Positions 873 to 55,651 of a stretch of DNA of 64,000 nt are shown here, piece by piece (position 1 is the stretch's first letter; each line of letters begins with the position of its first letter). The stretch comes from an uncultured bacterium (GTDB taxonomy: Bacteria > Hydrothermota > Hydrothermia > B15-G9 > WFZT01): assembly GCA_964571845.1 (NCBI GenBank), contig CAZNDM010000050.1, positions 11,676 to 75,675 of the forward strand, in the 5' to 3' direction. The translations under genes were made by a program, and so were the position numbers. A model generated the notes under the pieces. That model searched no databases, was not told the origin of the DNA, and saw nothing but the letters and a program-made list of their open reading frames with translations.

Positions 873-2552
873 ATGAAGGTCCTCATTGTTGGATCTGGTG
901 GAAGGGAACACGCCCTTGCCTGGAGAGTTAAACAGTCAGGCGCAACGGTTTATGTTGCTCCGGGAAATGGTGGAACCGCACTGATTGCCTCCAATGTGGA
1001 CATTCCGGCACACGAAGTGGAAAGGATTGCTGAATTTGCTAAAGCCAATGGGATAGATCTCACCATCGCTGGTCCCGAGCTTCCCATTAGTCTTGGCATC
1101 TATGATGAATTTGCCCGCAGGGGACTTAAGATCCTTGCACCGTCGAGAAGTGCATCAAGACTCGAGGCTTCGAAAATATTTGCGAAAAACTTTATGAAAA
1201 AATACGGTGTGCCAACAGCCCCATACAGAACTTTTACGGATTTTAATGAGGCGAAAAATTACGTTAGCGAGATCCAGGAATTTCCCCTCGTTATAAAAGC
1301 CGACGGACTTGCCGCAGGAAAGGGTGTTGTAATCGTGAAAGACCGGGATAGTGCGGTGGAAACCCTCAAAAGTTTTATGGTTGACGGCAGGTTTGGAGAT
1401 GCCTCCCGAAAGGTTGTCGTTGAAAAATTTCTCGAGGGGCAGGAGTTTTCTATTTTTGTTTTAACTGACGGAGAGAACAGTGTTTATGTTGGTGGAGCCT
1501 GCGATTACAAAAAGTTACTCGAGGAAGACAGGGGACCGAATACCGGTGGAATGGGGTCAGTGGCTCCCATACCGTTTCTCGATGGCGAAAAACTGAAGAG
1601 GGTGGAGGACGAGATCATCAGTCCCACACTCGAAGGTATCAGAGCGGAGGGGATGGTTTACAGAGGATTCCTTTACTTCGGTTTAATATGGACAGAGGAT
1701 GGGCCTTTTGTGCTGGAGTACAATGTGAGACTTGGTGATCCGGAGACCCAGGCAATATTACCGATTTTCGAGGGTGATTTTCTTGATCTTGTCGTAAGAA
1801 CCGTCGATGGGAATCTGAAGGGAGTTAGTGTGCCGGAGCCAGAGAAGAAGGCGGTTACCGTTATCGCCGCTTCACTTGGTTATCCCCTGAGTTATCAGAA
1901 GGGCAAAGAGATAACTGGAATTTCCGGTGATTACCTGATTTTTCACGCAGGGACAGTTTTGAAAGACGGTAAATTTTACACAAGTGGTGGAAGGGTGCTG
2001 GGGGTAACAGGGGTTGGTCAGACCTTTGAGGAGGCTGCAGCAAAGGCATATGAGGGAATTGAGAAAATTCACTTTGAGGGAATTTTTTACAGAAGAGACA
2101 TTGGGGAGAAGTGGTTTAAGAAAATTCTTATAGTGGCGGGGAGTGAATCAGACAGGGAATTTGTAGGTTATGGGACCGAAATCCTGGACAGGCTGGGAAT
2201 CCCATACGAGTTCAGGATTATTTCGGCACATAGAAATTTACCGGAACTGATGGAGTTTATTAAAAATTTAAGGGGTTACGAGGTTATCATTGCGGTTGCA
2301 GGGCTTGCTGCCCATCTGCCGGGGGTAATTGCCGGACTTACCAAATTACCCGTAATCGGTGTTCCGAGAGATACAGGTCCGCTGAACGGACAGGATGCTC
2401 TTTATTCTATGGTTCAGATGCCCAGGGGTGTCCCTGTAGCAACGATGGCAATAGGTAAGCATGGAATGATTAATGCTGTTCTGTATGCCTTAAGAATTCT
2501 CGCAACCCGTTATTCCTGGGCTGCAGAAGCCCTCAAAAACTGGAAGAGATGA
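873..2552 (+). CDS. purD: Bifunctional phosphoribosylamine-glycine ligase (PurD) fused to N5-CAIR mutase (PurE)
   Basis: N-terminal ~425 aa match PurD ('MKVLIVGSGGREHALAW', ATP-grasp, C-terminal 'FYRRDIG'). This runs directly into a PurE-like domain ('ILIVAGSESDREF...GLAAHLPGVIAGLTKLPVIGVP'). One continuous 559-aa ORF. Confidence 0.85.
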   Translation: MKVLIVGSGGREHALAWRVKQSGATVYVAPGNGGTALIASNVDIPAHEVERIAEFAKANGIDLTIAGPELPISLGIYDEFARRGLKILAPSRSASRLEASKIFAKNFMKKYGVPTAPYRTFTDFNEAKNYVSEIQEFPLVIKADGLAAGKGVVIVKDRDSAVETLKSFMVDGRFGDASRKVVVEKFLEGQEFSIFVLTDGENSVYVGGACDYKKLLEEDRGPNTGGMGSVAPIPFLDGEKLKRVEDEIISPTLEGIRAEGMVYRGFLYFGLIWTEDGPFVLEYNVRLGDPETQAILPIFEGDFLDLVVRTVDGNLKGVSVPEPEKKAVTVIAASLGYPLSYQKGKEITGISGDYLIFHAGTVLKDGKFYTSGGRVLGVTGVGQTFEEAAAKAYEGIEKIHFEGIFYRRDIGEKWFKKILIVAGSESDREFVGYGTEILDRLGIPYEFRIISAHRNLPELMEFIKNLRGYEVIIAVAGLAAHLPGVIAGLTKLPVIGVPRDTGPLNGQDALYSMVQMPRGVPVATMAIGKHGMINAVLYALRILATRYSWAAEALKNWKR

Positions 2553-3448
2553 ATAGCTGGGATGAGGTCAAAAGAAAAATAGAAGAGATAAGGTCAAAAG
2601 GTGGGAAGATCGTCTTTACAAATGGTGTATTTGACATTCTTCACAGGGGGCATGTGGAATACCTTGAGTATGCCAGATCACTGGGGGATGCACTGGTTGT
2701 AGGAATAAACACTGATGAATCTGTCAGACGGATTAAAGGTCCTGCGAGACCCATAAACACACTCGAGGACAGGATGTTTGTCCTACAGCATCTTGATGTA
2801 GTGGATTTTGTTGTGCCTTTTGAGGAAGATACTCCTTTGAAACTCATCGAATTTATTGAGCCCGACATACTTGTCAAGGGAGCGGATTACGAACTTGATG
2901 AGATCGTGGGGAGAGAGTTTGTGGAAAAAAGAGGCGGCAGAGTTGTGAGAGCACCGCTGAAAGAGGGTTATTCCACCACGAAACTCATCAAAAAAATCGT
3001 TGAAATGTCAAAGGAACTTGGCGTTGACAAGATGGAGCTCAGAACCCCATTTGTAGCTGTTGATGCCATAATTCAGATCTTTGATGGAGAGAAGTTTAAG
3101 GGGATCGTTCTGATCGAGAGGAAGTATCCGCCTTATGGTTTTGCACTTCCTGGTGGCTTTGTGGATTACGGAGAAAGTGTCGAGGAGGCGGTTATCAGGG
3201 AGGCAAAGGAGGAGACAGGACTGGATGTGCGGAATTTAAGGCAGTTTCATGTTTATTCGGATCCATCGAGGGATCCGAGAAGGCACACACTTTCAGTGGT
3301 TTTTACATGTGAAGCAGAAGGCAGGCCAGTTGGAAAGGACGACGCAAGGAGGGCTCATGTATTCAAACTCGAGGAACTTCCCCTCGAAAAGATGGCTTTT
3401 GACCACAAAAAGATTTTGATAGATTTTATAAAACGCAACCCATACTGA
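2549..3448 (+). CDS. D-glycero-beta-D-manno-heptose-1-phosphate adenylyltransferase (HldC/RfaE domain II)-like domain fused to a NUDIX hydrolase domain
   Basis: N-terminal 'NGVFDILHRGHVEYL...FEEDTP...LVKGADY...GYSTTKLIKKI' closely parallels RfaE domain II with an (H/T)xGH motif. The C-terminus has a perfect Nudix box 'GFVDYGESVEEAVIREAKEETGL'. Overlaps the purD-purE stop by 4 bp (ATGA). Confidence 0.75.
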   Translation: MNSWDEVKRKIEEIRSKGGKIVFTNGVFDILHRGHVEYLEYARSLGDALVVGINTDESVRRIKGPARPINTLEDRMFVLQHLDVVDFVVPFEEDTPLKLIEFIEPDILVKGADYELDEIVGREFVEKRGGRVVRAPLKEGYSTTKLIKKIVEMSKELGVDKMELRTPFVAVDAIIQIFDGEKFKGIVLIERKYPPYGFALPGGFVDYGESVEEAVIREAKEETGLDVRNLRQFHVYSDPSRDPRRHTLSVVFTCEAEGRPVGKDDARRAHVFKLEELPLEKMAFDHKKILIDFIKRNPY

Positions 3449-8856: not shown

Positions 8857-10023
8857 TTACTGATTCCCGGCTGAGAAAAAGTCTTTAACGATTTTCACAA
8901 TTCTCAAGGCGGCTTTGCCGTCTCCATAGGGGTTTATTGCCTTTGCCATCCTTTCATAGGCTGAGATGTCCTCGAGAAGTCTGGATGCCTCTTCGAATAT
9001 TTTCCGCCTGTCCGTCCCCACAAGCTTTGCGATCCCTGCTTCCACTCCTTCCATTCTCTCTGTAACTTCCCTCATCACAAGCACAGGTTTACCAAATGAA
9101 GGTGCCTCCTCCTGGATGCCCCCGGAATCTGTCAGGACTATGTAGGATTTTTCAAGCAGGTAAATGAGAGTTGGATAATCAACCGGATCGATCAGATGAA
9201 GATTTTCAAGATTCCCCAAAATGTCAAAAACAGGTCTCCTTACATTCGGATTCAGATGCACCGGGTATATGATTTCCACCGTGTCTTTGAATTTCAAAGC
9301 TATGTCTCTTAACGCGTTACACAGGTTTTTAAACGGCTCACCAAAGCTCTCCCTCCTGTGGGCCGTAACCAGAATAAGCTTTTTACCAGACTTGATCTTT
9401 TGTGGTAAACCTTGAGCCACTCTATTCAGGAAATTTTCAATTTCCGAATCCAGCCCCTTTTCTTTTATTATCCTGATTGCCTGAAGGTTGGCATCCACAA
9501 CAGTGTTTCCCGTAACAAAAATTTTTTCATCAGGAGTTCCTTCATTGAGGAGATTTTTTCTTGCTGTCTCAGTGGGTGCAAAGTGGAGATCTGTGAGTCT
9601 TCCTACGAGAACCCTGTTCATTTCCTCTGGAAAGGGAGAGTACTTTTTATGGCTTCTCAGGCCCGCCTCCACATGACCTACCGGGATTTTAAAGTAAAAT
9701 GCAGAAAGGGCACCGGTGAAAGCGGTTGTCGTATCCCCCTGCACGATCAGAAGATCCGGAGAGTATTTTCTCAGCGCTTCTTCGTAACCTCTAACACTGT
9801 CAACTGTGATGTCGAATAGAGTTTGATTTGGTTTCATTATCTTCATGTCGCAGTCTGGCTGGATGTCGAAGAATTTGACCGGCTGGTAGAGCATTTCCTG
9901 ATGCTGTCCTGTGAGACAGACAACGGTCTCAAATGCAGGATCCTCTCTGAATGCCTTAACCACAGGTGCCAGTTTTATAGCCTCGGGTCTTGTGCCGAAT
10001 GTGATAAATATTTTCCTCTTCAT
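8857..10023 (-). CDS. wecB: UDP-N-acetylglucosamine 2-epimerase (non-hydrolysing)
   Basis: 388 aa. 'KIFITFGTRPEAIKLAPVV', 'HVEAGLRS' and 'DSGGIQEEAPSFGKPVLVMREVTER' are hallmark WecB/MnaA motifs. Confidence 0.85.
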   Translation of the reverse strand: MKRKIFITFGTRPEAIKLAPVVKAFREDPAFETVVCLTGQHQEMLYQPVKFFDIQPDCDMKIMKPNQTLFDITVDSVRGYEEALRKYSPDLLIVQGDTTTAFTGALSAFYFKIPVGHVEAGLRSHKKYSPFPEEMNRVLVGRLTDLHFAPTETARKNLLNEGTPDEKIFVTGNTVVDANLQAIRIIKEKGLDSEIENFLNRVAQGLPQKIKSGKKLILVTAHRRESFGEPFKNLCNALRDIALKFKDTVEIIYPVHLNPNVRRPVFDILGNLENLHLIDPVDYPTLIYLLEKSYIVLTDSGGIQEEAPSFGKPVLVMREVTERMEGVEAGIAKLVGTDRRKIFEEASRLLEDISAYERMAKAINPYGDGKAALRIVKIVKDFFSAGNQ

Positions 10024-11597
10024 CTCCCAAAGTACTCCTTTATTTCGTCGAGTTCTGCCGGACTAACGAACTTGAAACCCATTGCTCTCAAGCTTCTAAC
10101 CACCTTTTTTAAAGATTCGATCCCATAAAAATGTTCTGCATCATGATAGTCAGCAAGGGTTGGATGCCAGAAAAATGAGGCTATGCCATCCCTTACAGCG
10201 AGTATATACTTTGCTTCGTTTATCAGGGTGTCTGGTGGTCTGACCGCTCCAAGATAGTTACTGATAAACCCAAGATTTTCCGGCAACAGAGTCTCCCCAT
10301 ATATGTCCCAGTAAATGACATAGGGAAAAAGCTGATTCTCGTAAATTACACCATCAGGCGATTCTATGTAGAGTGATGGTCTGTGATAGTTAAGCTCAAA
10401 CATTTTACCAAAAATGAAATAGTCAAGTCTCGATGCAGCATAGTGTGGAACTTCAAAACCTGTTACAGGTAATCCTGCCATCTGAAACTCTTTGAGCCCC
10501 TGTTTCATCCTCTCGTAAACCCACATCATGTTGTCTCCAGCTATTGGGGACTTGGTATCAAAGTCAAAGTATTCGTATCCCACGGCAGTTACATTGCCTT
10601 TCTGCCAGGTGGTTATCTCCTGCTGATGGGTTGTGCCATGCATGAAGATTAAACCCCCATGCTGAACCGCATATTTTAACACATCAACAAGATCCTTTGC
10701 CTGGTGAAGGTAAATTATTTTTTTCTTGTAAGGGTCCTTGTAAACCGGGATCACCGCCATGCTGAATGGAATGCCCTGTGAGTACAGGTAATCAACCACT
10801 TTTTTCAGGGTTTTCGCAGGGACAATCGGCGAGATGTCTTCAAGTCTGACAAGTGCACGAGGTGGTTTTCTGTGGTCCTGTCCAAGAATATCGTGCAGAA
10901 GGTCGCAGAAAATCGTATAGGGTGTGTTCACTCCAATGTAAGAGAACGGAGATTCAGACACGAACCAGATATTACGGGATTTTATAATGTGGGGTATTCT
11001 CTTTCTCTCTGGTTTACCATATCCCCACCAATCGATGTATGTGACGACCTTTGCTATTGAAGGATTTAGAATCGAGGTAACCGCAATCTCGGCGTCCCAT
11101 TCGTAAGATCCATTTTCGTATTTTTTGAACCATTTTTTGAACTTAAACCCTTTGTACTCAACGATTCGATAAAATCCTTTCTTGTCACGCACATCATAAC
11201 CGTAGGAAATGGAGTCTATCTTAAATCCGAAGTAACTTGCAAGCTTGATTCCAAGCTCTGACTGAAAGTTATTAAAGTTGTTTTTGAACCATACAACCGG
11301 ACCTTTGAAATTCAGAACATCTTTGAGAAATTCAGGGGGTAGGTAGGCTCTCTCGGTCGTGCCAAAGTAGAATACGGCATTATAGTTGAAGATTTCTCCC
11401 TGCCTGTAGTCTCCAACTGGTTTGTGATAATACACATACCTGAAGTGTCCAAGCAGGTTCTCAAGGTGGTACACATCGAGTATGGGATAAATGTGATAAC
11501 TTCTCGGAGACTGTAAATTGTCAAAAAGGATCAATGCCCTTCCTTTTATCTGGGAAGGATTTACAACACTCATTAAAATTAAAAGTGTCCACAGCAT
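10020..11597 (-). CDS. Secreted polysaccharide-deacetylase-like protein (DUF2334-like)
   Basis: Signal peptide 'MLWTLLILMSVVNPSQIKG'. Central 'ALVRLEDISPIVPAKTLKKVVDYLYSQGIPFSMAVIPVY' resembles the DUF2334/CE4-like 'RxDD' region. Overlaps wecB by 4 bp, so same operon. Confidence 0.4.
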   Translation of the reverse strand: MLWTLLILMSVVNPSQIKGRALILFDNLQSPRSYHIYPILDVYHLENLLGHFRYVYYHKPVGDYRQGEIFNYNAVFYFGTTERAYLPPEFLKDVLNFKGPVVWFKNNFNNFQSELGIKLASYFGFKIDSISYGYDVRDKKGFYRIVEYKGFKFKKWFKKYENGSYEWDAEIAVTSILNPSIAKVVTYIDWWGYGKPERKRIPHIIKSRNIWFVSESPFSYIGVNTPYTIFCDLLHDILGQDHRKPPRALVRLEDISPIVPAKTLKKVVDYLYSQGIPFSMAVIPVYKDPYKKKIIYLHQAKDLVDVLKYAVQHGGLIFMHGTTHQQEITTWQKGNVTAVGYEYFDFDTKSPIAGDNMMWVYERMKQGLKEFQMAGLPVTGFEVPHYAASRLDYFIFGKMFELNYHRPSLYIESPDGVIYENQLFPYVIYWDIYGETLLPENLGFISNYLGAVRPPDTLINEAKYILAVRDGIASFFWHPTLADYHDAEHFYGIESLKKVVRSLRAMGFKFVSPAELDEIKEYFGR

Positions 11598-11601
11598 CTT
11601 C

Positions 11602-12750
11602 TCACCTCGCTATGTAGAACCCAATCCTTAAATCACTGTAAGTGTCCGTGTTATAAGGATTTGGTTCTCCTGATTCTATGCCCGAATAAAATCCTTTCAG
11701 AAGCCTCGCATAAATTGCAAACCAGTAGGAGTAAACGATCTCCATTTCTGGTCCTATTTCCATCAGGTTGTTGTAAAAGAATTTTTTCCTGTCTCTTATA
11801 AATTTGTAGTAAACAGACGAGGACATGGTAATCCTGCCCAATTTTTTCTTAAATCCGGTGTTCATTTCAATGGTCAATGTGGTGTTGTAATCTGTCCTTT
11901 TTTCATGGTTGACCTCTCCATAGAGTGAATAGAAAAGTCCACTGGTTTTACCGATTCTATACATCCATTCCTTGTAAAAAAAACCGACAACGGCAAAGTT
12001 GTCGCCTTCCATCACAGTTTTCTGGATTTTAAATCTCCGAAAATAACCGTAGTACACGAAGATTGAAATGAGATTCCAGAAACCTGTTTGGGCTCCAACA
12101 TAAGTAAACCAGTGGTTATCCTCATAAATGTCAAGTTTACCGGATCTTGAATCTGTTAATACCCTGAATCCTATGAGTGGTTTTATACCTAAAATTCCGG
12201 GAAAAAACAGGTTTATTCTGAGATCACTGTCCACGAACTCCTCTCGAGTTGTGTAATAGGTTCCGAGATAAAAACTGTAATTAAAAAGGGATACCCTGCT
12301 CGTCTGGAGAAACTTCTGTGCCTCCTTTTTTAGCGCCTGATTGTCTGTAATGTAGATGAGTCTTCTGGCAACTTCTTTTCTCTTTTTTATATCTCCGATT
12401 TCATCGTAAAGGTAGAACAGAGCTGCCAGTGTGGCTTCGTCGTATGGAAACTTTTTCAGTACTTTTTCAAAAACTTTTATAGCATCTTTGGTCTTACCGA
12501 GGTCCCAGAGAATGTATCCGTAGTTCACATAAAACGAGTACTGTGGAGGGTTGTATTTGAGGAGTTTATCAAAAAAATACTTCGCTTTTTTCACATCATC
12601 TTTTCCCCAATAGTAATCAACTGAATCGATGTAGATTCTAACAGAGTCCGGTATGGTGAGGTCTTTTGAGAGCCTTTTATAGATTTTAACCGGGATATTT
12701 TTCTTTGTAGGTGCACCTAAAGTGAGCAGGATGACAAAAAGACCTATCAT
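11602..12750 (-). CDS. TPR-repeat protein with a beta-rich C-terminal domain (possible outer-membrane component)
   Basis: N-terminal signal/TM. TPR-like helical repeats ('AIKVFEKVLKKFPYDEATLAALFYLYDEIGD'). C-terminal half is rich in alternating aromatic/hydrophobic beta-strand patterns (YxY, GFY). Overlaps the upstream gene by 4 bp. Confidence 0.4.
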   Translation of the reverse strand: MIGLFVILLTLGAPTKKNIPVKIYKRLSKDLTIPDSVRIYIDSVDYYWGKDDVKKAKYFFDKLLKYNPPQYSFYVNYGYILWDLGKTKDAIKVFEKVLKKFPYDEATLAALFYLYDEIGDIKKRKEVARRLIYITDNQALKKEAQKFLQTSRVSLFNYSFYLGTYYTTREEFVDSDLRINLFFPGILGIKPLIGFRVLTDSRSGKLDIYEDNHWFTYVGAQTGFWNLISIFVYYGYFRRFKIQKTVMEGDNFAVVGFFYKEWMYRIGKTSGLFYSLYGEVNHEKRTDYNTTLTIEMNTGFKKKLGRITMSSSVYYKFIRDRKKFFYNNLMEIGPEMEIVYSYWFAIYARLLKGFYSGIESGEPNPYNTDTYSDLRIGFYIAR

Positions 12751-14900
12751 CTCTTTTTCCTCTTTAAGGATTTGAGTTTTCTGGGTTTTTCCTCGATGAC
12801 TTCGTCTTTTTCTGTCTGAACTTCAGGTTCTTCTGGTGGCATTTCTACCGGCTCCTGCTCCACAATTTTGAGTGCCCTTTCAAATCTCTTATCTACTTTT
12901 CTGGGTTTCCTTATCGATCGGATTGTAAGTTTAAAGCCACGCACTATGTATCTCAAAATGGTGAGCAGAATAAAGATACCGATCAGGATAAGAGGAATGT
13001 AAATTAAAAGTTTGTAGTAGTTTTCGAGGAAGAAGTACCGCATATCAAATTTTTTCTCAGGTGCTCCCCAATAACTTATTCTCCGTGTAAGTTCACAGTG
13101 GGTTACCTCCCCACTATAGTCGATTAATGCAAGGTTTCCGTATAGGGCATTGAGCTTCTGCGGAATTCTAAAGAGTTTTATAATTCCACCTGCCTCTTCA
13201 TCGTTTCTGAAAGAGAGATACAGGTATGCATTGTTTTTCCTGCCCAGATCCTCATAAAGAAATGGCTGTTTTGCCTTCTTCGTCTTAAAATCACCAATAA
13301 AGATGACATTATGTTCAAATTTCTTAAGATTGCCAATATCCTTTCTTGAAATGATCGGTACTTCTGGAAACACTTCCTTTTCACCGATGAATCTCATAAA
13401 CTCAAGGTAAACTTTGAAACGGTCTTCGGACAGCTTATCGATCACGATGTAGGTTTTCTTGACATAAGGTGAATATCCGAATGGGAATGCATAGTATTTC
13501 AGGTACCTGAGATCGGGCATCTCAATAACCCACTTTCGAGTCATTTTGAACTTCGTTGTTGGTAGAATTTCAACCCACAGGACACTCGAATCGCTTACAG
13601 GTATGCGTGGAATAATTTTGAAGTCAAAGTTAAGATAGTTTATTGTCCCCAGTGATTTCCAGTTTATGACGACTTCTTTTCCAGAATCAGCACATGGTCC
13701 TTCAATACTTTCATCGAATATCTTCTCGCCGTCAATTGTTATTTTCAGTTTTGATTTTTTAATGTTAACCACATCAGATGCCTGTAGCCTCAGTCTGAAA
13801 ATTTGAGAATAGGGCAGGAATTCCATATCAGGCAGGAATCTCAAAGTAAGTACAAATCTTGCCTCAGGTCCGGTTACGCGCGCTGTTCCCCTGTAAACAT
13901 GAGAAAGTTCAAAGTATTCAGGCTCTGGACCGAGGATCACAGGTGTACGGTTGAAGCCGTAGTATCCACTTGCCACAAAAAATATATTTTCACCATAACT
14001 TTTCGATTCAGTGATGAGTGCAAAAGCTGCTTTCAAAACCGCATCCTCAGAGTTTCCCGTAACTATCATGACGGGAAATCCGTATTCATTATTCGTGGCG
14101 ATCAGGATTCCGAGGTCATCGGATATTTTTTCACCTTTCAAATTGGCCCAGTAGTATTCCCCCCTTTTCCTTAAGAGTTTTATGTGGGAAGATGTTTGTA
14201 TAATCTTGAGAAGTAATGGGGAAAAGTACTGTTCATCCGGTGTACCTATGATCAATGCTGCACCTTTCCTTACTATGTCAGCATTTCTCACGACATCGAA
14301 TGCAGGAGTGCTGGTCTTTCCCCTGTAGCCAAGGTCCTCAGCAATGTAAGATACTGCAATGGATGTTACCGGATGAGTTTTTTCGGGCAGCTGGAAGTAA
14401 ACGATCTGGTCTGGATTTTGGGTTCTGTCGAGAAAAATTTCCGGATACTGGCTGATCAAATATGGTGAGTTGAGGTAATTGATGAGTCCCTTGAGGGAGA
14501 TTTTTGTAATGTCAATATAACCAATACAGTGTGTTTTGAGAGATTTTAGAGACACAGAGACTTCGAGTGTGGAAAATTTTTTGAGTAGATAAATGGGGAT
14601 TTTTTGAACGATCCTGTGCCTGTCAGGTTTCAGGTCTTTGAATCCGAGGAACTCACCATTAAAAGCGATCCCCATTTTTAAAGGTACATCGCAGTTGATG
14701 AGGTTATAGTCTATTTCAAGGTATGCTTCACTGAAGGCTTCAGGTGAATAGTTGAGTTTGAAATCGATTTTTTCATAGTCATCAGGCAGATTAAGAGTGA
14801 ATATTGGCTGCCCGGGTGTGGTAAATACCCGAAACTCTCTCCAGGTAAACTGGGCCTGGAGGAGACCAGTAGCGAGGAGGGCGAGGATGAGTTTTTTCAT
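12747..14900 (-). CDS. Large periplasmic protein with a C-terminal transmembrane anchor (BcsB-like topology)
   Basis: 717 aa. Signal peptide 'MKKLILALLATGLLQAQF', long soluble region, single C-terminal TM helix ('LLIYIPLILIGIFILLTIL') and a charged cytoplasmic tail. Homology to BcsB is not demonstrable by eye. Confidence 0.45.
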   Translation of the reverse strand: MKKLILALLATGLLQAQFTWREFRVFTTPGQPIFTLNLPDDYEKIDFKLNYSPEAFSEAYLEIDYNLINCDVPLKMGIAFNGEFLGFKDLKPDRHRIVQKIPIYLLKKFSTLEVSVSLKSLKTHCIGYIDITKISLKGLINYLNSPYLISQYPEIFLDRTQNPDQIVYFQLPEKTHPVTSIAVSYIAEDLGYRGKTSTPAFDVVRNADIVRKGAALIIGTPDEQYFSPLLLKIIQTSSHIKLLRKRGEYYWANLKGEKISDDLGILIATNNEYGFPVMIVTGNSEDAVLKAAFALITESKSYGENIFFVASGYYGFNRTPVILGPEPEYFELSHVYRGTARVTGPEARFVLTLRFLPDMEFLPYSQIFRLRLQASDVVNIKKSKLKITIDGEKIFDESIEGPCADSGKEVVINWKSLGTINYLNFDFKIIPRIPVSDSSVLWVEILPTTKFKMTRKWVIEMPDLRYLKYYAFPFGYSPYVKKTYIVIDKLSEDRFKVYLEFMRFIGEKEVFPEVPIISRKDIGNLKKFEHNVIFIGDFKTKKAKQPFLYEDLGRKNNAYLYLSFRNDEEAGGIIKLFRIPQKLNALYGNLALIDYSGEVTHCELTRRISYWGAPEKKFDMRYFFLENYYKLLIYIPLILIGIFILLTILRYIVRGFKLTIRSIRKPRKVDKRFERALKIVEQEPVEMPPEEPEVQTEKDEVIEEKPRKLKSLKRKKR

Positions 14901-14906
14901 GAATTA

Positions 14907-16976
14907 TTAGATCCCTTTCCTTGTCAGCCTTTTCCTCCCATACCCCGATGAGACCACCGGGGGTTCTTTGAAGATTTCGTGTAACATATCCGTTACTGAA
15001 ACCTCAGCAAAATCCTCAAATCTCAGATCTTCAATCTCTTCCCAGAGGTCAGTTTCAGTCTCTTCCTCTATGAATTTATCGAGCCCTTTTTCTTTGATTT
15101 TTTGAGACAGTACAAGCAGACCAGGCTCTGCGAAGGCTTTGAGAAAGTCTCTGAATTCGGATTTGGGTATGATTACGGGTATCACAACTTTCCCAAGTTT
15201 GTCTGAAACTTCTTTTAGGAAGTTGTCAGACGGCGGATCGATAAAACCTACCTCCATGTAGTTTGGAGTTTCGTTGAGAGGAAGAATGCAGTGTTCTGCA
15301 ATATACTCGCCCCTAAGTTTTTCAATAGCTTCCTTGGGCAGGGTGTCAGGTAGCTCCTCTACGAATTCAAGACCTCTCTGGATGGCGAGAAACTTCCCGA
15401 TCTGGTCTTCGGAGAGCAGCCCCATCTCAACAAGGATTTCACCGAGTCTCCTTTTCGTCTTTTTTTGCTGTTGTAATGCGTATTCGAGATGCTCCTCTGT
15501 GATAATTCGATTTTCAATAAGAAGTTCACCAAGTTTTTTCTGATAAGCGACAAGCTGCTCTGTTTTAGGAAATGCATGCGTCGTTTTTGCCCAGGAAAGG
15601 GGCTTTTTTGTTATTTTATGCCAGATAAACTTTGAAAGTGCATTGTAGATGGCAAGAAAGTTGATCAAATTCAACCACGGGACCCTGAGAATGCTATATA
15701 GGCCCTGCTTAACTCCGTAAATAACACTCACTGCATAGACCTTCATCAGGAGTCTTTCAAAGAGCATGACAGTGTTGAAGAAAATAACCCACCAGATTAT
15801 ACCTTCACCCGGGATAAATCTTGAGAGGTTCCATCCAGTGTGGAAAAGTTTACCGAGTAAGACATACAGCCATCCCGCGACGAATAAAAGGTTGGTCATA
15901 AAACTGATTATGGATGACCATACCCCTTTTCTATCCTTATAAAGATAGAATTTGTCTATGAGTTTGCCACGCCACCTGAGTTTTTCAGTTCCCTGAAAGA
16001 TAATTCCGAGCATCCAGCGACTTTTCTGCCTGATAGCAGCTTTGAACTGGAATGGGAAGTATTCCCTCGTTGCAATAAACTCACTTTTGTATTCAAAATG
16101 TTTTCTTAGCCATGCGGGTAGGAGTTTTAGCCACCAGCTGTGTCTTTTGACTCTCACAGCCCTTTTGAGTAGTGCCTGTTTCCCGCCGAGATCTTTAATA
16201 TGCTTTCCAATGATGTAGTCTTCTGTTAATGAGCTTGTATCAAAAAGCACATTGCTGTGCTTTTCTGCAAGCTTCTCAAGTATCTGCCTCGAAAAAGCAG
16301 TACCCACACCAGCTGAAGGAACGAAGCCTCCAAGGACATTCCTCACATAAATCTCTTTCAGGTGATGCTCAGCAAACTCGTCCATGTATGTCCCTGCCGT
16401 GAAATTTTTAAAAGGAACTTCGAGGGAGAATACAGGTATCTGGATCATGTCATATTCAGAGGACAGGTAATTCACGAGCTTCAGAGATAGAGGATGGATG
16501 ATGTCCTCTGCGTCATGCATCAGAATAATATCAAATTTAATGCCGTTTTCCTCTTCGTACTTCAGCATGTTCTGGTAAATCCAGTTGAGGTTGTCTGCTT
16601 TGTTCGTGGGTCCGTCATGAGGAACCTGAGCCATGTGAACATGTGGGTAAAGTCTTTCCACTTTGGCAACTTTCATCTTGGTTTCAAAATCGTTGGGATA
16701 TACACCGATAAATATGTGATAGTTTTTGTAAGCAAGAACATTCACATTGTGCTTGATCATGTCCTCAATAACTTCAGCCTCTTTCCACGCAGGCAGGAAT
16801 ATGGCAATATTCTTCTCAGGAACTCTATCGAGGTCTTCGAGGTTGACCTTTACCTTTTCGCCATTAAATGTTCTCAGTATGAAGTAGAGTATATCCGAAA
16901 ATAGGTCATCGAGAGATCCGATGAAGACCCCCCATATTGTGATATACACGAGTATGTAAACGATTGTGAATAGCAT
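14907..16976 (-). CDS. Family 2 glycosyltransferase with C-terminal tandem MshEN-type c-di-GMP-binding motif (NfrB-like exopolysaccharide synthase)
   Basis: 689 aa. N-terminal TM helix, GT2 catalytic region ('ILMHDAEDIIHP', 'QxxRW'-like 'RQKSRWMLG'), TM helices at ~350-470. C-terminus 'KKLGELLIENRIITEEHLEYALQQQ-KKTKR-RLGEILVEMGLLSEDQIGKFLAIQ' is two 24-aa MshEN motifs separated by a 5-aa spacer. Confidence 0.7.
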   Translation of the reverse strand: MLFTIVYILVYITIWGVFIGSLDDLFSDILYFILRTFNGEKVKVNLEDLDRVPEKNIAIFLPAWKEAEVIEDMIKHNVNVLAYKNYHIFIGVYPNDFETKMKVAKVERLYPHVHMAQVPHDGPTNKADNLNWIYQNMLKYEEENGIKFDIILMHDAEDIIHPLSLKLVNYLSSEYDMIQIPVFSLEVPFKNFTAGTYMDEFAEHHLKEIYVRNVLGGFVPSAGVGTAFSRQILEKLAEKHSNVLFDTSSLTEDYIIGKHIKDLGGKQALLKRAVRVKRHSWWLKLLPAWLRKHFEYKSEFIATREYFPFQFKAAIRQKSRWMLGIIFQGTEKLRWRGKLIDKFYLYKDRKGVWSSIISFMTNLLFVAGWLYVLLGKLFHTGWNLSRFIPGEGIIWWVIFFNTVMLFERLLMKVYAVSVIYGVKQGLYSILRVPWLNLINFLAIYNALSKFIWHKITKKPLSWAKTTHAFPKTEQLVAYQKKLGELLIENRIITEEHLEYALQQQKKTKRRLGEILVEMGLLSEDQIGKFLAIQRGLEFVEELPDTLPKEAIEKLRGEYIAEHCILPLNETPNYMEVGFIDPPSDNFLKEVSDKLGKVVIPVIIPKSEFRDFLKAFAEPGLLVLSQKIKEKGLDKFIEEETETDLWEEIEDLRFEDFAEVSVTDMLHEIFKEPPVVSSGYGRKRLTRKGI

Positions 16977-16978
16977 AA

Positions 16979-17356
16979 TTAATCAACTACTGCCCATATT
17001 ATATTTTTGTCAGAAATGTAATCAAGCTTTTTCAAATTTTTCTTTGCAGGACCTTTGATAACAGAACCACTCAGATTGAACTCACTCCCGTGGCAGGGAC
17101 ATCTGAAAATACCGGTTTTTTCGTCATATTCCACGATACAGCCAAGATGTGTACACCGGGCAGACATTAGATGCAGACCATTGGAATCTCTGAAATAGAT
17201 AACGCCATCCTTTATTTTTGGTTTTAGGCCTATTTCATCTTCGGGAATCCTGACTTTATGCGACTTTTCAGGTGTAAACCGGATGAAGTCGAGCAGAAGT
17301 TTTCCACCAATCAAAAAAATTATGAACAGCGAACCCAAAAATTTTCTTCTCTTCAT
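16979..17356 (-). CDS. Rieske [2Fe-2S] domain protein, membrane/Tat-anchored
   Basis: 125 aa. 'RRKFLG' twin-arginine-like N-terminus plus a hydrophobic helix. Classic Rieske boxes 'CTHLGC' and 'CPCHGS' with a 15-aa spacer. Ends 2 bp before the GT2 gene. Confidence 0.75.
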   Translation of the reverse strand: MKRRKFLGSLFIIFLIGGKLLLDFIRFTPEKSHKVRIPEDEIGLKPKIKDGVIYFRDSNGLHLMSARCTHLGCIVEYDEKTGIFRCPCHGSEFNLSGSVIKGPAKKNLKKLDYISDKNIIWAVVD

Positions 17357-17398: not shown

Positions 17399-19954
17399 AT
17401 GCTGATTTTCCTCATTACAATCCTATTTTCTCTGAATCAACAGGATGGATGGTTCTATTTATATACTCTCAGGGACACCATTTCGCCAGTCATAGAGGTG
17501 CCGGAGGAATCTGAAAGTGGCGAAAGTATTACACTTCGTGGATCAAAGACGATTTCAATCAGCACAGGATCTGATGGTGAATTGCAGATTCAGCAGGGAC
17601 TCAGATTAACAATTGATGGCAATATTGGAAAACTTGGAGAAATTCAGGGGGTGGTAAATGATAACAGCGACGCCCCGACCGGTGTGGTTTCGAGAACCCT
17701 GTCTGGATTTAGCGAGATTTATTTAAAATACCTTTATCGAAATTTCACCTGGAGTTTTGGGAAGATAAACCTCACAACCGATTATTACTCGTCTCCCATG
17801 CTTGGTGGTATGATGGAATACAGGGGCGAAGATTCTGATATAAAATTCGCCTACGGAGAAGTGCCGGGGGTGTACAGAATACGCACATTTACAGGGATTA
17901 CAAACCCGGCTCTACCTTTGAAGATAACTGACAATGGAGAACAGATCGTCAGTGGCACTATCCGGGTTTATCTGAATGGAAACCCCTTAAAGGAGAACAA
18001 AGATTTCAGTGTGGACTACATAACTGGCACCGTATACTTCTTACCCGGAGTTGAAATAAAACCAGATGACAGGCTCAGGGTCGAATATATTTCCAGCGAA
18101 TCTTTTGGCAGAAAATGGCTTACAGGTGTAAACCTGAGTTTACGGAAGGAATTCTATTCCCTGAATTTAAACTTTATTCAGGAGGCGGATGACAGAGCCT
18201 ACTGGCTCGATAATCTTGGAAGTGAAGCAATTGATTCACTCAAAGACAAAGAAGGTAGAGTTATGATCCCTGCGTGGAGATTCGTCGGGGAGGGCCAGGG
18301 AGATTATGACCTTTTGGATAGTATTTTTGTCTATAGAGGTGAAGGGGAAGGGAGTTATTCAGTTAGTTTCACTTATGTGGGGCTTGGTAAAGGAGACTAC
18401 AGGTTTAACGACGCTGGAGGATTTTTTTACTTTGCAGGTAAAGGTATGGGTGATTATACTCCTTTCATCACAATAACTCCTCCATTGAGAAGAAGGAAAA
18501 TTCTTATCAACTCCAGCTTGAAACGGGGAGGTTTTGTACTCAAGGGAGGGACCTACATAAGTCTTTTGAAGAAAAATCTTTTTTCAAATTCACCGGAAAG
18601 CCAGAATTTGGACGGATTTGCAGGACTGGAGTACAGGAGTAGAGCCCTATCATGGAAACTACTGGCGTTTCAAACTGATTCCGTAGGGTTTTATCTTGCA
18701 GATGACCTTGAAGATCAAAGAGGAAGAGGATTTTTGGGAGCTTTTACTGTTAAAAAATTTAAGAACCTGGAACCCGGGATCGAATATTCAAAGTCAGACG
18801 AAGCAACGAAGTTAAAGTTATGGCTGCGGGGTAGATCTTATAGAATTTATTATGAAAAATCAGATTCCACAGAAAAATATGGTGGAAAGGTTTTATTTTC
18901 TGCCGGAGCAGTAAGGGCTTATTTCGGCGGAGAGAGATTTTATTCAGAAATAGCGTATGATCAGATTTATGGAGGTGCTAGCTATGTCCCATATCTGACG
19001 CTCAAGACTTCAAGGAAATTTTTCTACGATGGGAAGGTGGAGGATGATCTCAATGTGAATTTCCAGAACGAGAATTTGACCCTGGGTTATAGACTGATAA
19101 AAACTTCACCCGGTGATTCCCTATTTCAATCTATCCTGTGTGATTATTCTGGTTTTACCCAAAACATCGGATACTCACTCAGGTTTCGTTATAGAGAGGA
19201 TTTGCAGAAGGATGTATCCTTCAGATACATCTATGTTGGTGATGGCAACGGTAATTATTCTTACGATTCGACGAGCGGAAGATTTTATCGGGATCCCCTT
19301 GGTAGTTATGAGAGACAGGTGATGTACAGTGGCCAGGATGCTGGCATAAAGAGCCTTTTCGGGGATCTGGCACTAAACATATCGAGACTTTCCCTCAAAT
19401 TTTCGGGCACGATCAAATTTTCTAATAAAGTTACATCCAGGCAGGAAAATTTCTACCTTACTTATTCCGACAATAGATTTTATGGTAATTTCACAAAAGT
19501 TTTTGACTATCATCTCGATGAGGAGAATGTTTTTGAAGATGGAACGGCAGAGTACAGACATGGACAGTTAATTCCGGGTATCAGGTATATACGAAGTGGT
19601 GGAACGGAAATGACGGATGACAGATACATCGAGATCTACGGAAAATTCAGACATAGAAAACTTCAGTTGAAGTTGGGAAGTTTCTTCAGACCTTCGTATC
19701 CTCCGGGTCTGAGTGCAGGATTTAGCTTAGGAAGAGAAATTCTGTCAGGTTTTTTTCAAGCAAACCTGGATTTTAGCTATGTCTCTGCTGCTCCTGCTGG
19801 GGCTTTTCCTCCAGAAGGTATGTCTTTCATGTATTCATTAAATTATTCTCACAGGTTTTTGGCAAGCACAGGAGGAAACCTTGAATTACGCGGGAGAAAG
19901 CAGAAGGGAAGACACATCTACACACTCAGGTTTTCACTTTCCATTGAGTTTTAA
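17399..19954 (+). CDS. Large outer-membrane beta-barrel-like hypothetical protein
   Basis: 851 aa with an N-terminal hydrophobic signal. Very rich in Y/G/S/D/N beta-strand patterns. C-terminal '...RFSLSIEF' ends in Phe, the OMP beta-signal. Divergent from the exopolysaccharide operon by only 42 bp. Confidence 0.5.
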   Translation: MLIFLITILFSLNQQDGWFYLYTLRDTISPVIEVPEESESGESITLRGSKTISISTGSDGELQIQQGLRLTIDGNIGKLGEIQGVVNDNSDAPTGVVSRTLSGFSEIYLKYLYRNFTWSFGKINLTTDYYSSPMLGGMMEYRGEDSDIKFAYGEVPGVYRIRTFTGITNPALPLKITDNGEQIVSGTIRVYLNGNPLKENKDFSVDYITGTVYFLPGVEIKPDDRLRVEYISSESFGRKWLTGVNLSLRKEFYSLNLNFIQEADDRAYWLDNLGSEAIDSLKDKEGRVMIPAWRFVGEGQGDYDLLDSIFVYRGEGEGSYSVSFTYVGLGKGDYRFNDAGGFFYFAGKGMGDYTPFITITPPLRRRKILINSSLKRGGFVLKGGTYISLLKKNLFSNSPESQNLDGFAGLEYRSRALSWKLLAFQTDSVGFYLADDLEDQRGRGFLGAFTVKKFKNLEPGIEYSKSDEATKLKLWLRGRSYRIYYEKSDSTEKYGGKVLFSAGAVRAYFGGERFYSEIAYDQIYGGASYVPYLTLKTSRKFFYDGKVEDDLNVNFQNENLTLGYRLIKTSPGDSLFQSILCDYSGFTQNIGYSLRFRYREDLQKDVSFRYIYVGDGNGNYSYDSTSGRFYRDPLGSYERQVMYSGQDAGIKSLFGDLALNISRLSLKFSGTIKFSNKVTSRQENFYLTYSDNRFYGNFTKVFDYHLDEENVFEDGTAEYRHGQLIPGIRYIRSGGTEMTDDRYIEIYGKFRHRKLQLKLGSFFRPSYPPGLSAGFSLGREILSGFFQANLDFSYVSAAPAGAFPPEGMSFMYSLNYSHRFLASTGGNLELRGRKQKGRHIYTLRFSLSIEF

Positions 19955-20923
19955 TAAGAATTTCTCGAACTTTTCAAAGACCTCTTTGGCAGTCAGTTTG
20001 TGGATGCAATCGAATGTGCCCAGGGGACACTTCTTTCTCCAGCATGGTTGACATGGAAGACCTTTGTATGCAAAGGAATGATGGGGGTATGGTGGAGTCC
20101 AGGCTTCTGGTAACTCTGTAAAGAACAGGGCAAAAGTTGGTGTCCCCTGGCTGACAGCTATGTGCTTTGGTCCTGAATCTGAACCGAAGAAGACACCGGC
20201 AAGTTTCATCAATGCTCCGAGCTCGTGCAAACTTTTTGTTGGAGGAGCAACTTTTAGCCCTTTTGCGCACTCGAAAATGGCGGCGTGAGTACGGGGATTG
20301 TCATTTATCAGTAAAACGGGTATTTTGAATTTTCTCATTACAAGATTAAAAAATTCACAGTATTTTTCCGGTTCCCAGGCCCTGTGAGGTAGATCCAGTC
20401 TGATGTGAGAGACCATGAAAAACCCGGTTACTCCCATTTTCCTGATTTTTTCGTTCATGTGATCAATGTAATGACCCGGGATGGGAAACTCTGTTTCAAT
20501 GGGGACTTCCATTGGATCTATACCAAGGGGCCTTAAAAACTCGAGTCTATGATAAACCGTGTAGTGAATTTTACCAAAAGGGGGATTTATGGCTACATTG
20601 TAGTATCTGATCTTTCCGGGTTTGTGGATTGCGAATACATATTTTGCTCCTGATAACCTGGCTGATATTGCCGATGTGAGATTACCTTTAAGATCCATGA
20701 AAATAGACGGTTTAAAGCGTCTGATAGAGATGATATTTTTTGTGCTGAAGAGAACGGGTGTTACCCTTTTATTGTACTCAAGAATCTGAATTGCAGGATG
20801 TCTTGAGATATAAATGATTCTGAAATGTGGAAATCTTTCGTTCAGTGCTCTTATTAATGGAGTGTCGAGGAGGGTGTCACCAATTGCCCCCGGTCTGAAA
20901 ATTACGATACTTTCTACATCCAC
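19934..20923 (-). CDS. Family 9 glycosyltransferase (ADP-heptose:LPS heptosyltransferase-like)
   Basis: 'VIFRPGAIGDTLLDTPLIRAL' at the N-terminus and 'GSDSGPKHIAVSQGTPTFALF' are GT9 signatures. C-terminal Cys cluster 'CQPCWRKKCPLGTFDC' as in WaaF-type enzymes. Confidence 0.8.
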   Translation of the reverse strand: MDVESIVIFRPGAIGDTLLDTPLIRALNERFPHFRIIYISRHPAIQILEYNKRVTPVLFSTKNIISIRRFKPSIFMDLKGNLTSAISARLSGAKYVFAIHKPGKIRYYNVAINPPFGKIHYTVYHRLEFLRPLGIDPMEVPIETEFPIPGHYIDHMNEKIRKMGVTGFFMVSHIRLDLPHRAWEPEKYCEFFNLVMRKFKIPVLLINDNPRTHAAIFECAKGLKVAPPTKSLHELGALMKLAGVFFGSDSGPKHIAVSQGTPTFALFFTELPEAWTPPYPHHSFAYKGLPCQPCWRKKCPLGTFDCIHKLTAKEVFEKFEKFLLKLNGK

Positions 20924-54800: not shown

Positions 54801-55651
54801 GTATTTCATCTCCGCCAGTTGTTGGAGAATTCAGAAGGGATTTTGAAGGAAACGAAATTTTGATAAATGACAATGGCACGCTTAAGCTTTTTGATCACGC
54901 CGGAAACCTGATTGTTTCTTATGAAGGATTTTACACAGCAGTGGCGGCTGATGTGAATTTTGATGGAGAACTTGACATTGTTGGGACAACGGATCGGGGT
55001 GTGAGAATTTATTCTTCAAGGGGATTGGAGATGTTGAATAGAGAGTTTCAAAGTGTTGATTACTATCTTAAGGAACCGGTTGTTGGTGATGTGGATGGAG
55101 ATAGAGTCCCGGAAATTTTGTTTGAAAGCTTTATGGCAAGCGAGCTAATTTCTGTGGAGCTCGATAGCTCTATAACACCGGGATTTCCGTTTAATCTCGT
55201 GGAATCTCCTGGATACTGCATTCCTATACTTGATGATATCGACGGAGATGGATTGATGGACATTATTGTAGCCAGTACATTTGACAGCGTGTGGGTACTC
55301 GAGACTCAGGCTCCTTTTGATCCTTCCCGTGCGCTGTTCCCTGTTGAAAAATACGATTATAGGCGAACGGGATTTGTCGAGTTTGTGCCAACAGGAATAC
55401 ATCAAGGGGAGCTAAACATGAACTTTGTCCTTTACCCAACAGTTACGAAGGGAATGGTTACCATTGAGACAGGGGAATATCCTGTAACGGTAACCTTTTA
55501 CACAACTGACGGAAGAGTGGTTAAGAGATTTTCCAAAGTAGCTTCCAATACTTTAAAATTAAAGCTCGATTTTCCATCAGGGATTTATTTCTACAGAGTA
55601 AAATCAGCAAAAGGGATTGTTAAAACCGGGAAATTATTGCTTCTAAGGTAA
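51878..55651 (+). CDS. Peptidase C25 (gingipain)-like protein with FG-GAP/VCBS-type repeats and a type IX secretion C-terminal sorting domain
   Basis: N-terminal '[27 protein letters not shown]...VGRLPV' resembles the C25 N-terminal region. Candidate His/Cys dyad ('GNLHAQSF', 'TCHIGGFD'). Six or more 'DxDGDGxxEI' repeats. C-terminal ~80 aa resembles T9SS CTDs. Confidence 0.6.

Follow-up and report, generated by a model that had tools for sequence, protein, structure and literature searches.

The window analysed here, a 64-kb stretch of DNA from a WOR-3 bacterium, contains a block of six minus-strand genes that runs from position 17356 down to 8857. In this order, the genes code for a Rieske protein, a glycosyltransferase (the synthase), a BcsB-family protein, a protein with a TPR and a beta-rich part, a DUF2334 protein and WecB (Table 1). 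The Rieske gene is located 2 bp upstream of the synthase on the same strand, and from the synthase on, the successive junctions measure +6, -4, +4 and -4 bp. A previous interpretation made from the letters alone (the sequence-only reading) had described the genes from 16976 to 8857 as a five-gene operon with gaps of 0-5 bp or 4-bp overlaps. All of its ORF positions agree with ours, the five genes are indeed co-directional and the overlaps are found. However, one gap is off by one base (+6), and a sixth gene, coding for the 125-aa Rieske protein which starts the block, had been overlooked. The coding density of the window is about 90%, and in the rest of the window 14 of 30 same-strand gene pairs are at most 10 bp apart. 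The six genes are probably co-transcribed as one operon but, as tight packing is typical of this genome, close spacing is weak evidence for it. The window also carries a GT9 heptosyltransferase gene (19934-20923), which is compatible with an LPS-bearing outer membrane.

Table 1. Features of the six-gene block; positions refer to the 64-kb window.
Feature	Positions	Strand	Evidence
Rieske [2Fe-2S] protein, 125 aa; first gene of the block	16979-17356	-	Pfam Rieske, E 4e-12
NfrB-type processive family-2 glycosyltransferase with C-terminal MshEN, 689 aa; presumed synthase and inner-membrane translocon	14907-16976	-	NCBIfam, identity to E. coli NfrB
Glycosyltransferase catalytic motifs HDAED (aa 154-158), TED (aa 251-253), QKSRW (aa 317-321)	16014-16517	-	identical or near-identical in E. 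coli NfrB
Two 24-residue MshEN putative c-di-GMP-binding motifs, KLGELLIENRIITEEHLEYALQQQ (aa 481-504) and RLGEILVEMGLLSEDQIGKFLAIQ (aa 510-533), 5-residue spacer	15378-15536	-	NCBIfam, Pfam, PDB
BcsB-family periplasmic protein, 717 aa; signal peptide, large periplasmic part, Lys/Glu-rich cytoplasmic tail	12747-14900	-	Pfam BcsB
Single C-terminal membrane helix of BcsB-family protein (aa 627-660)	12921-13022	-	hydrophobic segment
Miniature NfrA homologue (mini-NfrA), 382 aa; signal-peptide-like N-terminus; presumed outer-membrane export pore	11602-12750	-	TPR Pfam matches, profile comparison
TPR module of mini-NfrA (aa 26-145)	12316-12675	-	Pfam TPR
NfrA_C-like beta-rich domain of mini-NfrA (aa 151-382)	11605-12300	-	profile-profile comparison
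YdaL-family (DUF2334) protein, 525 aa; presumed periplasmic polysaccharide de-N-acetylase	10020-11597	-	Pfam DUF2334
CE4/NodB-like deacetylase domain of YdaL protein (aa 245-500)	10098-10865	-	high-confidence structure model
WecB, non-hydrolysing UDP-GlcNAc 2-epimerase, 388 aa; UDP-ManNAc supply	8857-10023	-	TIGR00236, Pfam Epimerase_2

The synthase shares 36% sequence identity with E. coli NfrB over 603 aa (E 2e-122) and passes the cutoff of NCBIfam model PRK15489 (545 bits, cutoff 537). The NfrB model NF008411 is matched with 507 bits over aa 2-648, and as the equivalog cutoff of 1170 is missed, the protein is a distant NfrB homologue and no equivalog by the NCBI criterion. Its hydrophobic segments are found at aa 1-23, 355-375 and 393-411. 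In five other WOR-3 orthologues, the catalytic motifs read HDAED or HDSED, TED, and QKSRW or QKTRW, the orthologues being 74-90% identical to each other. The MshEN region exceeds the cutoffs of the NCBIfam c-di-GMP_motif model NF053729 (66.8 bits, cutoff 38) and of Pfam MshEN (25.9 bits, cutoff 23.1), and it matches the c-di-GMP-binding domains of MshE and PilF/PilB in the PDB. Both motifs are kept in all WOR-3 synthase orthologues, with the first one opening with K in place of R in the window genome. Judged by its sequence, the MshEN domain is predicted to bind c-di-GMP. Searches for a GGDEF protein in 159 kb of WOR-3 sequence and for a c-di-GMP riboswitch in the 64-kb window gave no match.

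The 717-aa protein scores 63.6 bits against Pfam BcsB (cutoff 21), with aa 148-543 aligned to positions 142-535 of the 606 in the profile, and its family profile matches solved BcsB chains (E 0.002); its scores against the NCBIfam BcsB equivalog models are far under the cutoff. The TPRs of the 382-aa protein align with residues 601-716 of E. coli NfrA, which are the last TPRs and directly precede the NfrA C-terminal domain. When the family of its own C-terminal domain was compared to that of NfrA by hhalign, 94.7% was obtained (E 5.9e-8, 171 columns), while shuffled controls reached at most 8.2%. The Pfam model NfrA_C does not directly match the window's protein, and a family HMM of the latter scores E. 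coli NfrA no higher than shuffles. About 13 strands are predicted for the beta-rich half (model pLDDT below 50). The C-terminal domain is 21.6% aromatic and ends with GFYIAR or GFYISF. We take it that the domain may fold as a barrel and that the protein may reside in the outer membrane.

The 525-aa protein matches Pfam DUF2334 with 151 bits. Its N-terminal domain is ThuA/GATase1-like, and the high-confidence model has a CE4/NodB fold. An invariant set of residues in the family (E-D and HxxxH) matches CE4 motifs 1 and 2, which would be the metal-site residues. Homologues that span 90-98% of this protein carry the JGI name YdaL, and it is through this naming of full-length homologues that it is tied to B. 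subtilis YdaL and Listeria PssB. The hydrophobic N-termini of the 382-aa and YdaL proteins have no charged n-region, so that both are presumed rather than known to be exported. WecB is assigned at the equivalog level (485 bits against TIGR00236, cutoff 210; 390 bits against Pfam Epimerase_2). In the Rieske protein, a twin-arginine motif (RRKFL) and a single membrane anchor near the N-terminus (aa 5-28) are accompanied by the cluster boxes CTHLGC (aa 68-73) and CPCH (aa 86-89).

Profile searches, which the sequence-only reading had proposed as a check, thus confirm every one of its domain calls (WecB, DUF2334, TPR with a beta-rich half, BcsB), and none of the assignments contradicts a polysaccharide role. 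For the DUF2334/CE4-like call, the fold and the conserved, putative metal-site residues are added. In other cases a likeness has become a relationship: the resemblance to NfrAB is closer than claimed, as the synthase is an NfrB homologue; the miniature layout of TPRs and a beta-rich half belongs to a shortened homologue of NfrA; and the protein with BcsB-like topology is a true BcsB-family member by the Pfam threshold.

It had also been reasoned that a loss of synteny in related genomes would speak against a common function. Five more WOR-3 genomes show the same gene order as the window, with one or two DUF2334 copies per block and with BcsB proteins that are 43-83% identical to that of the window. 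The flanks of the block vary, with three downstream and at least three upstream versions; the upstream neighbour is a DNA ligase in locus L003 and an 851-aa ORF in the window. As the block is kept while flanking genes differ, its synteny is evidence above chance, even though all six genomes belong to WOR-3, a single phylum-level lineage.

We also considered 80 metagenomic loci with NfrB-like genes. A wecB gene is found nearby in 18 of these, proteins of the mini-NfrA family flank the NfrB-like gene in 14 (in none of them together with a long NfrA), and YdaL is close by in eight. NfrB-like transferases are directly paired with BcsB also at loci L022 and L023, but this pairing is rarer in metagenomes than sets of NfrB, mini-NfrA, YdaL and WecB. 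In Streptomyces, Ralstonia and Omnitrophota, and in an nfr operon from a proteobacterium, YdaL homologues are neighbours of wecB and of GT2 synthases. Together with the window, the metagenomic loci indicate that a compact module of NfrB, mini-NfrA, YdaL and WecB is widespread.

We consider it most likely, and with good confidence, that the product of this conserved operon is a surface polysaccharide based on N-acetylmannosamine, which its proteins synthesise, trim and export under the control of c-di-GMP, and that the operon is a compact relative of NfrAB. The host would then be a diderm WOR-3 bacterium with an Nfr-type, synthase-dependent exopolysaccharide system. WecB would convert UDP-GlcNAc to UDP-ManNAc, which the NfrB-like glycosyltransferase, turned on by binding of c-di-GMP to its C-terminal MshEN domain, would polymerise at the inner membrane while pushing the chain across. 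In the periplasm, the chain may be received and guided by the BcsB-family protein, anchored by its one C-terminal helix, and the YdaL-family enzyme could strip some of the N-acetyl groups by means of its CE4-like metal site. Finally, mini-NfrA would dock via its TPR module and the polymer would leave through the C-terminal barrel.

The Rieske protein is provisionally placed as a periplasm-facing redox input to the synthase or as its partner, and this is the weakest step. It is almost an even matter whether the other five genes represent a real exopolysaccharide system while the Rieske gene is a passenger, i.e. a respiratory or redox housekeeping gene kept by inherited gene order in one clade. 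The gene is absent from all 78 NfrB-like loci outside of WOR-3 as well as from the YdaL loci of Omnitrophota, Streptomyces, Ralstonia and the proteobacterium. The nearest solved relatives of the protein are ordinary, small bc1/b6f-type Rieske proteins, and tight packing and the restriction to one lineage are as expected for a passenger. However, all six WOR-3 genomes have the gene 2-12 bp ahead of the synthase, at 52-70% identity and with its motifs conserved, and it stays there even where BcsB is only 43-46% identical and the upstream genes differ. It is always the first gene past the intergenic gap where a promoter would sit, and neither a cytochrome b nor any other redox partner is adjacent to it. 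That the Tat-exported, membrane-anchored protein truly belongs to the synthase complex, as a subunit or a regulator, and couples the periplasmic redox state (oxygen, oxidants, a quinone or cytochrome partner) to polysaccharide synthesis or export, seems unlikely to us. If true, it would provide a second, extracytoplasmic input beside cytoplasmic c-di-GMP. We know of no synthase-dependent exopolysaccharide system with an iron-sulfur component. The conserved Rieske gene offers a specific candidate through which redox input could reach exopolysaccharide secretion.

YdaL/DUF2334 has an essential role in the Bacillus Yda system. YdaLMN are needed for exopolysaccharide production in B. subtilis (PMC13274460, PMC9800504), and for Listeria, PssB has been listed as the enzyme that deacetylates a ManNAc-based exopolysaccharide (PMC6307706). 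It may be asked if YdaL is not mainly a modifying deacetylase and polymer production itself depends on it, either as an obligatory structural or assembly part of the synthase machinery or as an enzyme whose substrate is a primer or a lipid-linked molecule. We do not find this particularly likely, given that the invariant CE4-type residues speak for catalysis on an acetamido sugar and that 72 of the 80 NfrB-like loci are devoid of YdaL, showing that the synthase family in general does not need it. The window's YdaL protein may well deacetylate the polymer, and the family can be proposed to be a CE4-like deacetylase that accompanies two types of synthase supplied by WecB. On this view, cationic ManNAc polymers that have lost part of their N-acetyl groups are to be expected.

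That nfrB and wecB are linked in various taxa has been published as evidence that the substrate is UDP-ManNAc (PMC8669469), and the block probably produces a ManNAc polymer. A product not based on ManNAc is quite improbable; the BcsB partner would then point to a polymer of GlcNAc or to a glucan, and WecB would feed another pathway such as that of a cell-envelope glycan. This would be in line with the prevailing linkage of BcsB to cellulose synthases and with the absence of wecB near the NfrB-like/BcsB pairs of L022 and L023, and published work on the E. coli NfrB product stops short of a chemical structure (PMC8669469, PMC8669472). However, wecB closes the block in all four WOR-3 contigs that reach that far, and in unrelated phyla it is again a neighbour of NfrB-like and YdaL genes. 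In addition, Listeria PssD is a BcsB orthologue and yet serves a ManNAc polymer (PMC4125290, PMC5422440), and neither a PilZ domain nor a BcsA-type architecture was found in the block with Pfam. It is highly improbable that the genes are neighbours merely because the genome is compact and the sampling shallow, and that they form no single functional unit for, despite the close spacing of about half of the same-strand neighbours and the origin of all syntenic genomes from WOR-3, the block stays while its flanks change, NfrB, mini-NfrA-type, YdaL and WecB are joined again in unrelated lineages (L031, L035, L047), GT2, BcsB, a TPR protein and YdaL occur together in Omnitrophota, and L018 has the order wecB-nfrB-nfrA-ydaL.

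The Nfr exopolysaccharide system was recognised in 2021. The homologous synthases of E. coli and the window are built alike, from an N-terminal helix, a GT2 domain carrying HDAED/TED/QxxRW, a pair of linking helices and MshEN, and NfrA and its counterpart in the window are homologous in the last TPRs and the C-terminal domain. While E. coli NfrA has 990 aa, the 382-aa protein of the window keeps only the last TPR module and the C-terminal domain. This minimal NfrA may indicate that one TPR module and the C-terminal domain are enough for export, and it is tractable for structure work. The E. coli system relies on WecB (PMC8669469, PMC8669472), which is encoded within the operon in the window, as has been reported for species without a separate wecB (PMC8669469, PMC8669472). 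YbcH, which is non-essential in E. coli (PMC8669469), had no match in 159 kb of WOR-3 sequence when E. coli YbcH was used with phmmer, and genes of the BcsB, YdaL and Rieske families are added. The different accessory-gene set claimed by the sequence-only reading therefore holds for these additions and for the missing YbcH but not for NfrA, which is retained in miniature. In a published survey, NfrB homologues were nearly all from Proteobacteria, with rare Gram-positive cases (PMC8669469); the window locus puts an Nfr system in an uncultured, deeply separate phylum. Current models are not overturned by this; rather, a young family is extended and hypotheses are supplied.

The cellulose (Bcs) system shares BcsB with the window, but the synthase of the window has no PilZ or BcsA match and its exporter is NfrA-like and no BcsC. 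From PgaABCD/IcaADBC, the window differs in all families: there is no PgaC/PgaD synthase, DUF2334 is found instead of PgaB and an NfrA-like exporter instead of PgaA, and the precursor is epimerised by WecB. With B. subtilis YdaJKLMN and Listeria PssA-E, it shares the YdaL-family protein (by full-length homologues) and the BcsB-family protein, a counterpart of YdaN/PssD. The Listeria product, a beta-1,4 ManNAc chain, likewise requires UDP-ManNAc (PMC5422440, PMC13492145). However, the Yda/Pss systems use a transferase of about 415 aa (YdaM/PssC) and a separate receptor with a degenerate GGDEF domain (YdaK/PssE), whereas the window has an NfrB-type synthase with fused MshEN; their GGDEF and GH8 components are not found in the window block, which has a presumed outer-membrane component. 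The Omnitrophota locus, with a TPR protein after BcsB, represents a diderm version.

An nfrA-nfrB-wecB cluster with a BcsB homologue and O-acetyltransferases has been described for Achromobacter xylosoxidans (PMC8669472). Like the window, it is an Nfr-type system that has recruited a BcsB homologue and polymer-modifying enzymes. It differs in having a full-length NfrA, no reported Rieske protein, and O-acetylation by alginate-type acetyltransferases where the window has a CE4-like deacetylase.

The sequence-only reading had described a five-gene exopolysaccharide operon on the minus strand, and the coordinates of its five ORFs were found to be exact. A sixth gene, coding for a Rieske protein, had been missed. 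From the synthase gene downward, the junctions measure +6, -4, +4 and -4 bp. It had been argued that such tight spacing implies one transcript. Spacing is weak evidence for an operon here because 14 of the 30 other same-strand gene pairs in the window (coding density about 90%) are also within 10 bp of each other. Scans for sigma-70 promoters and intrinsic terminators between positions 5000 and 18500 gave counts not above those in shuffled sequences; promoters of the host's candidate division, WOR-3, may be of another type.

Genes of the exopolysaccharide block and their positions in the window
Gene	Position	Strand	Remark
wecB	8857-10023	minus	
DUF2334 (YdaL), 525 aa	10020-11597	minus	
TPR/beta (mini-NfrA), 382 aa	11602-12750	minus	
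BcsB-like, 717 aa	12747-14900	minus	
GT2-MshEN synthase	14907-16976	minus	
Rieske protein, 125 aa	16979-17356	minus	co-directional, 2 bp upstream of synthase

The proposal had been staked on synteny in related genomes, and this synteny was found. The order Rieske, synthase, BcsB, TPR/beta, DUF2334, WecB is kept in five further genomes (loci L001/L007, L003/L009, L005, L008 and L010), with BcsB proteins that are 43-83% identical to the one in the window. A collection of 5.8 billion proteins contains only ten relatives of the BcsB-like protein. Across 185,579 species genomes there are six related places, of which five lie in WOR-3 contigs and one (L009) in a contig from an uncultured bacterium. 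The DUF2334 gene is doubled in two of the five further genomes. These are tandem duplications of 535 and 525/526 aa (L003, 13309-16555; L010, 7944-11170), while the window carries a single copy.

The flanks of the block vary. Downstream, three versions were encountered (carB; a phosphomutase and Usp gene; CCG/LUD genes), and upstream there is an 851-aa ORF, the same ORF with two inserted genes, a DNA ligase gene or a 572-aa ORF. In the window, carB follows on the same strand 39 bp past wecB, but it is not considered a seventh block gene since other genomes carry a different downstream neighbour. The divergent 851-aa ORF (17399-19954, plus strand) could also be ruled out as part of the system, as L003 and L010 lack it and inserted genes separate it from the block in L001. 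Its position is kept in four of six WOR-3 genomes; it belongs to no Pfam family and its sole match, to a SprA-like NCBIfam model, is weak.

Over 603 residues, the synthase shares 36% identity with E. coli NfrB (E 2e-122). It scores above the cutoff of NCBIfam PRK15489 (545 versus 537 bits) and below that of the NCBIfam NfrB equivalog model (507 versus 1170 bits). HDAED, TED and QKSRW are conserved, as are, among its orthologues, two 24-residue MshEN motifs (aa 481-504 and 510-533) with their 5-residue spacer. The c-di-GMP motif model gives 66.8 bits (cutoff 38), and a PDB sequence search returned MshEN-domain matches only, including the solved c-di-GMP-binding domains of MshE and PilF. The synthase, which is predicted to bind c-di-GMP, is better conserved than any other protein of the block (74-90% identity among WOR-3 orthologues). 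With respect to the source of c-di-GMP, no GGDEF protein is encoded in 159 kb of WOR-3 sequence, which speaks for that sequence alone, and no c-di-GMP riboswitch was detected in the 64-kb window (Rfam). The closest relatives of the synthase from outside WOR-3 (about 42% identity) occur in two metagenomic loci (L022, 10882-13410; L023, 9986-13461), where the transferases directly adjoin a strong BcsB (Pfam 182-203 bits). The L023 transferase has 500 aa and no MshEN match. Such a pair resembles a core of two genes that lacks c-di-GMP gating.

For the 717-aa protein, only a BcsB-like topology had been proposed. It does have a signal peptide and one C-terminal helix (aa 627-660), and by the Pfam threshold it is a true member of the BcsB family (63.6 bits, cutoff 21; aa 148-543 on profile positions 142-535). 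Its family profile also matches solved BcsB chains (E 0.002).

The 382-aa protein had been compared to a miniature of PgaA, BcsC or NfrA. Its TPR repeats and beta-rich half were upheld, and the comparison can be narrowed to NfrA, which is retained in miniature. The best NCBIfam match of the TPR module is the NfrA model (positions 601-719), and the repeats align to E. coli NfrA at 602-715 (BLASTP) or 601-716 (hhalign), i.e. to the last repeats before the NfrA C-terminal domain. An AlphaFold2 model built from four homologues is confident for the TPRs; in the C-terminal half about 13 strands are predicted with pLDDT below 50.

Only the TPRs aligned when BLASTP or hhalign were applied to the single E. 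coli NfrA sequence, and a family HMM of the domain scored E. coli NfrA no better than 2000 shuffles. Signal was obtained solely from comparison of family profile with family profile. When 41 C-terminal domains were compared by hhalign with 14 distinct NfrA C-termini from NfrB-like loci, the probability was 94.7% (E 5.9e-8, 171 columns). Controls reached 0.2% for the reversed alignment, at most 0.6% in 30 column shuffles, at most 8.2% in 30 twelve-column block shuffles, and 0.1-0.3% for unrelated alignments. When a profile built on the C-terminal 232 residues was run against 1.84 billion representatives, only 35 relatives were recovered. In these the NfrA_C-like domain is almost always at the extreme C-terminus, and most of the longer ones have N-terminal TPRs, although the query lacked them; one relative matches NfrA_C below threshold (22.6 versus 25 bits). 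Among 80 metagenomic NfrB-like loci, 14 have a neighbouring member of the short TPR plus NfrA_C-like family and 15 have a long NfrA, but none has both. From these sequence comparisons we conclude that the 382-aa protein is a shortened NfrA homologue.

The C-terminal domain has 21.6% aromatic residues and no long hydrophobic run, and it ends in GFYISF or GFYIAR, resembling an outer-membrane beta-signal. A barrel fold and an outer-membrane location appear plausible. The signal peptides of this protein and of YdaL are atypical. Three remote homologues (P0137, P0138 and P0139, 289-306 aa) contain two tandem copies of the NfrA_C-like C-terminal half (profile positions 125-228), which suggests that the domain was born by duplication of a half-unit. 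About half of the 80 NfrB-like loci have none of the modelled accessory families.

The 525-aa protein belongs to DUF2334 (Pfam, 151 bits), a family almost absent from the searchable literature. Most of the 120 homologues listed, out of 158, cover 90-98% of the query, and many of them carry the JGI name "uncharacterized protein YdaL". A PDB sequence search gave no match. The AlphaFold2 model (72-sequence alignment) has a mean pLDDT of 93. Invariant residues E253-D254 in RLEDI and H320/H324 in HGTTH fit CE4 motifs 1 and 2; H385, D431 and H478 are likewise invariant.

YdaL homologues occur next to wecB and a GT2 synthase gene in Streptomyces, next to wecB in Ralstonia, and in an Omnitrophota cluster with GH8, GGDEF, GT2, BcsB and TPR proteins. 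A metagenomic nfr operon with 64% GC (L018, 3475-12420) combines ydaL with wecB, nfrB, nfrA and a weak ybcH-like gene. There, nfrB is 70% identical to the E. coli N-terminal half, GT and MshEN are split into separate ORFs, and a PAS-GGDEF-EAL gene adjoins the operon. YdaL is encoded in eight of the 80 NfrB-like loci, in some as part of a four-gene wecB-nfrB-miniNfrA-ydaL operon. The TPR protein encoded after BcsB in the Omnitrophota cluster (L013) was rejected as a relative of the 382-aa protein, as no relatedness could be detected, and the BcsB of that locus gave only a short out-of-register BLASTP match to the window BcsB (E 3e-4). In layout this locus is analogous to the block, but it is not orthologous.

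The one really unexpected part of the system is the Rieske association. The protein carries a twin-arginine motif, a single anchor helix and CTHLGC/CPCHGS boxes of the bc1/b6f type, and it resembles 110-aa small Rieske proteins of known structure. In each of the six WOR-3 genomes its gene opens the block and lies 2-12 bp ahead of the synthase gene; the proteins are 52-70% identical, with all motifs kept. None of the non-WOR-3 loci examined carries the gene (the NfrB-like loci and the YdaL loci of Streptomyces, Ralstonia, Omnitrophota and L018). The gene may be a lineage-specific passenger, or its product may provide a redox input to the system.

Elsewhere in the window, a 559-aa fusion of the purine-synthesis enzymes PurD (GARS N, A and C domains) and PurE (AIR carboxylase) is encoded at 873-2552 (plus strand), followed by a 299-aa fusion of a cytidylyltransferase-like and a NUDIX domain, of NadM-Nudix type (2549-3448, plus strand). 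A 1257-aa protein (51878-55651, plus strand) has Peptidase_C25 (gingipain-type), CarboxypepD_reg and FG-GAP domains. Together with a GT9 heptosyltransferase (19934-20923), it fits a diderm envelope of the FCB type.

Family assignments and conserved linkage, both directly observed, support the interpretation as an exopolysaccharide secretion system with Nfr logic. In the proposed mechanism, WecB would make UDP-ManNAc, from which the NfrB-like synthase would polymerise and translocate a chain when c-di-GMP occupies its MshEN domain. BcsB would guide the chain through the periplasm, YdaL may partially de-N-acetylate it, and the miniature NfrA would export it.

E. coli NfrB binds c-di-GMP via its MshEN domain; it depends on WecB and acts together with NfrA and YbcH, the latter being dispensable (PMC8669469). 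Linkage of nfrB to wecB is frequent, and the homologues surveyed are almost all proteobacterial (PMC8669469). The nfr cluster of Achromobacter includes a BcsB homologue and acetyltransferases (PMC8669472), YdaLMN are needed for the Bacillus Yda exopolysaccharide (PMC13274460, PMC9800504), and Listeria Pss is a ManNAc-based exopolysaccharide whose system includes PssD, an orthologue of BcsB, and PssB, listed as a deacetylase (PMC4125290, PMC5422440, PMC6307706). The present locus places an Nfr system in a phylum where none had been described; it is a variant of the Nfr kind which combines parts seen separately elsewhere.
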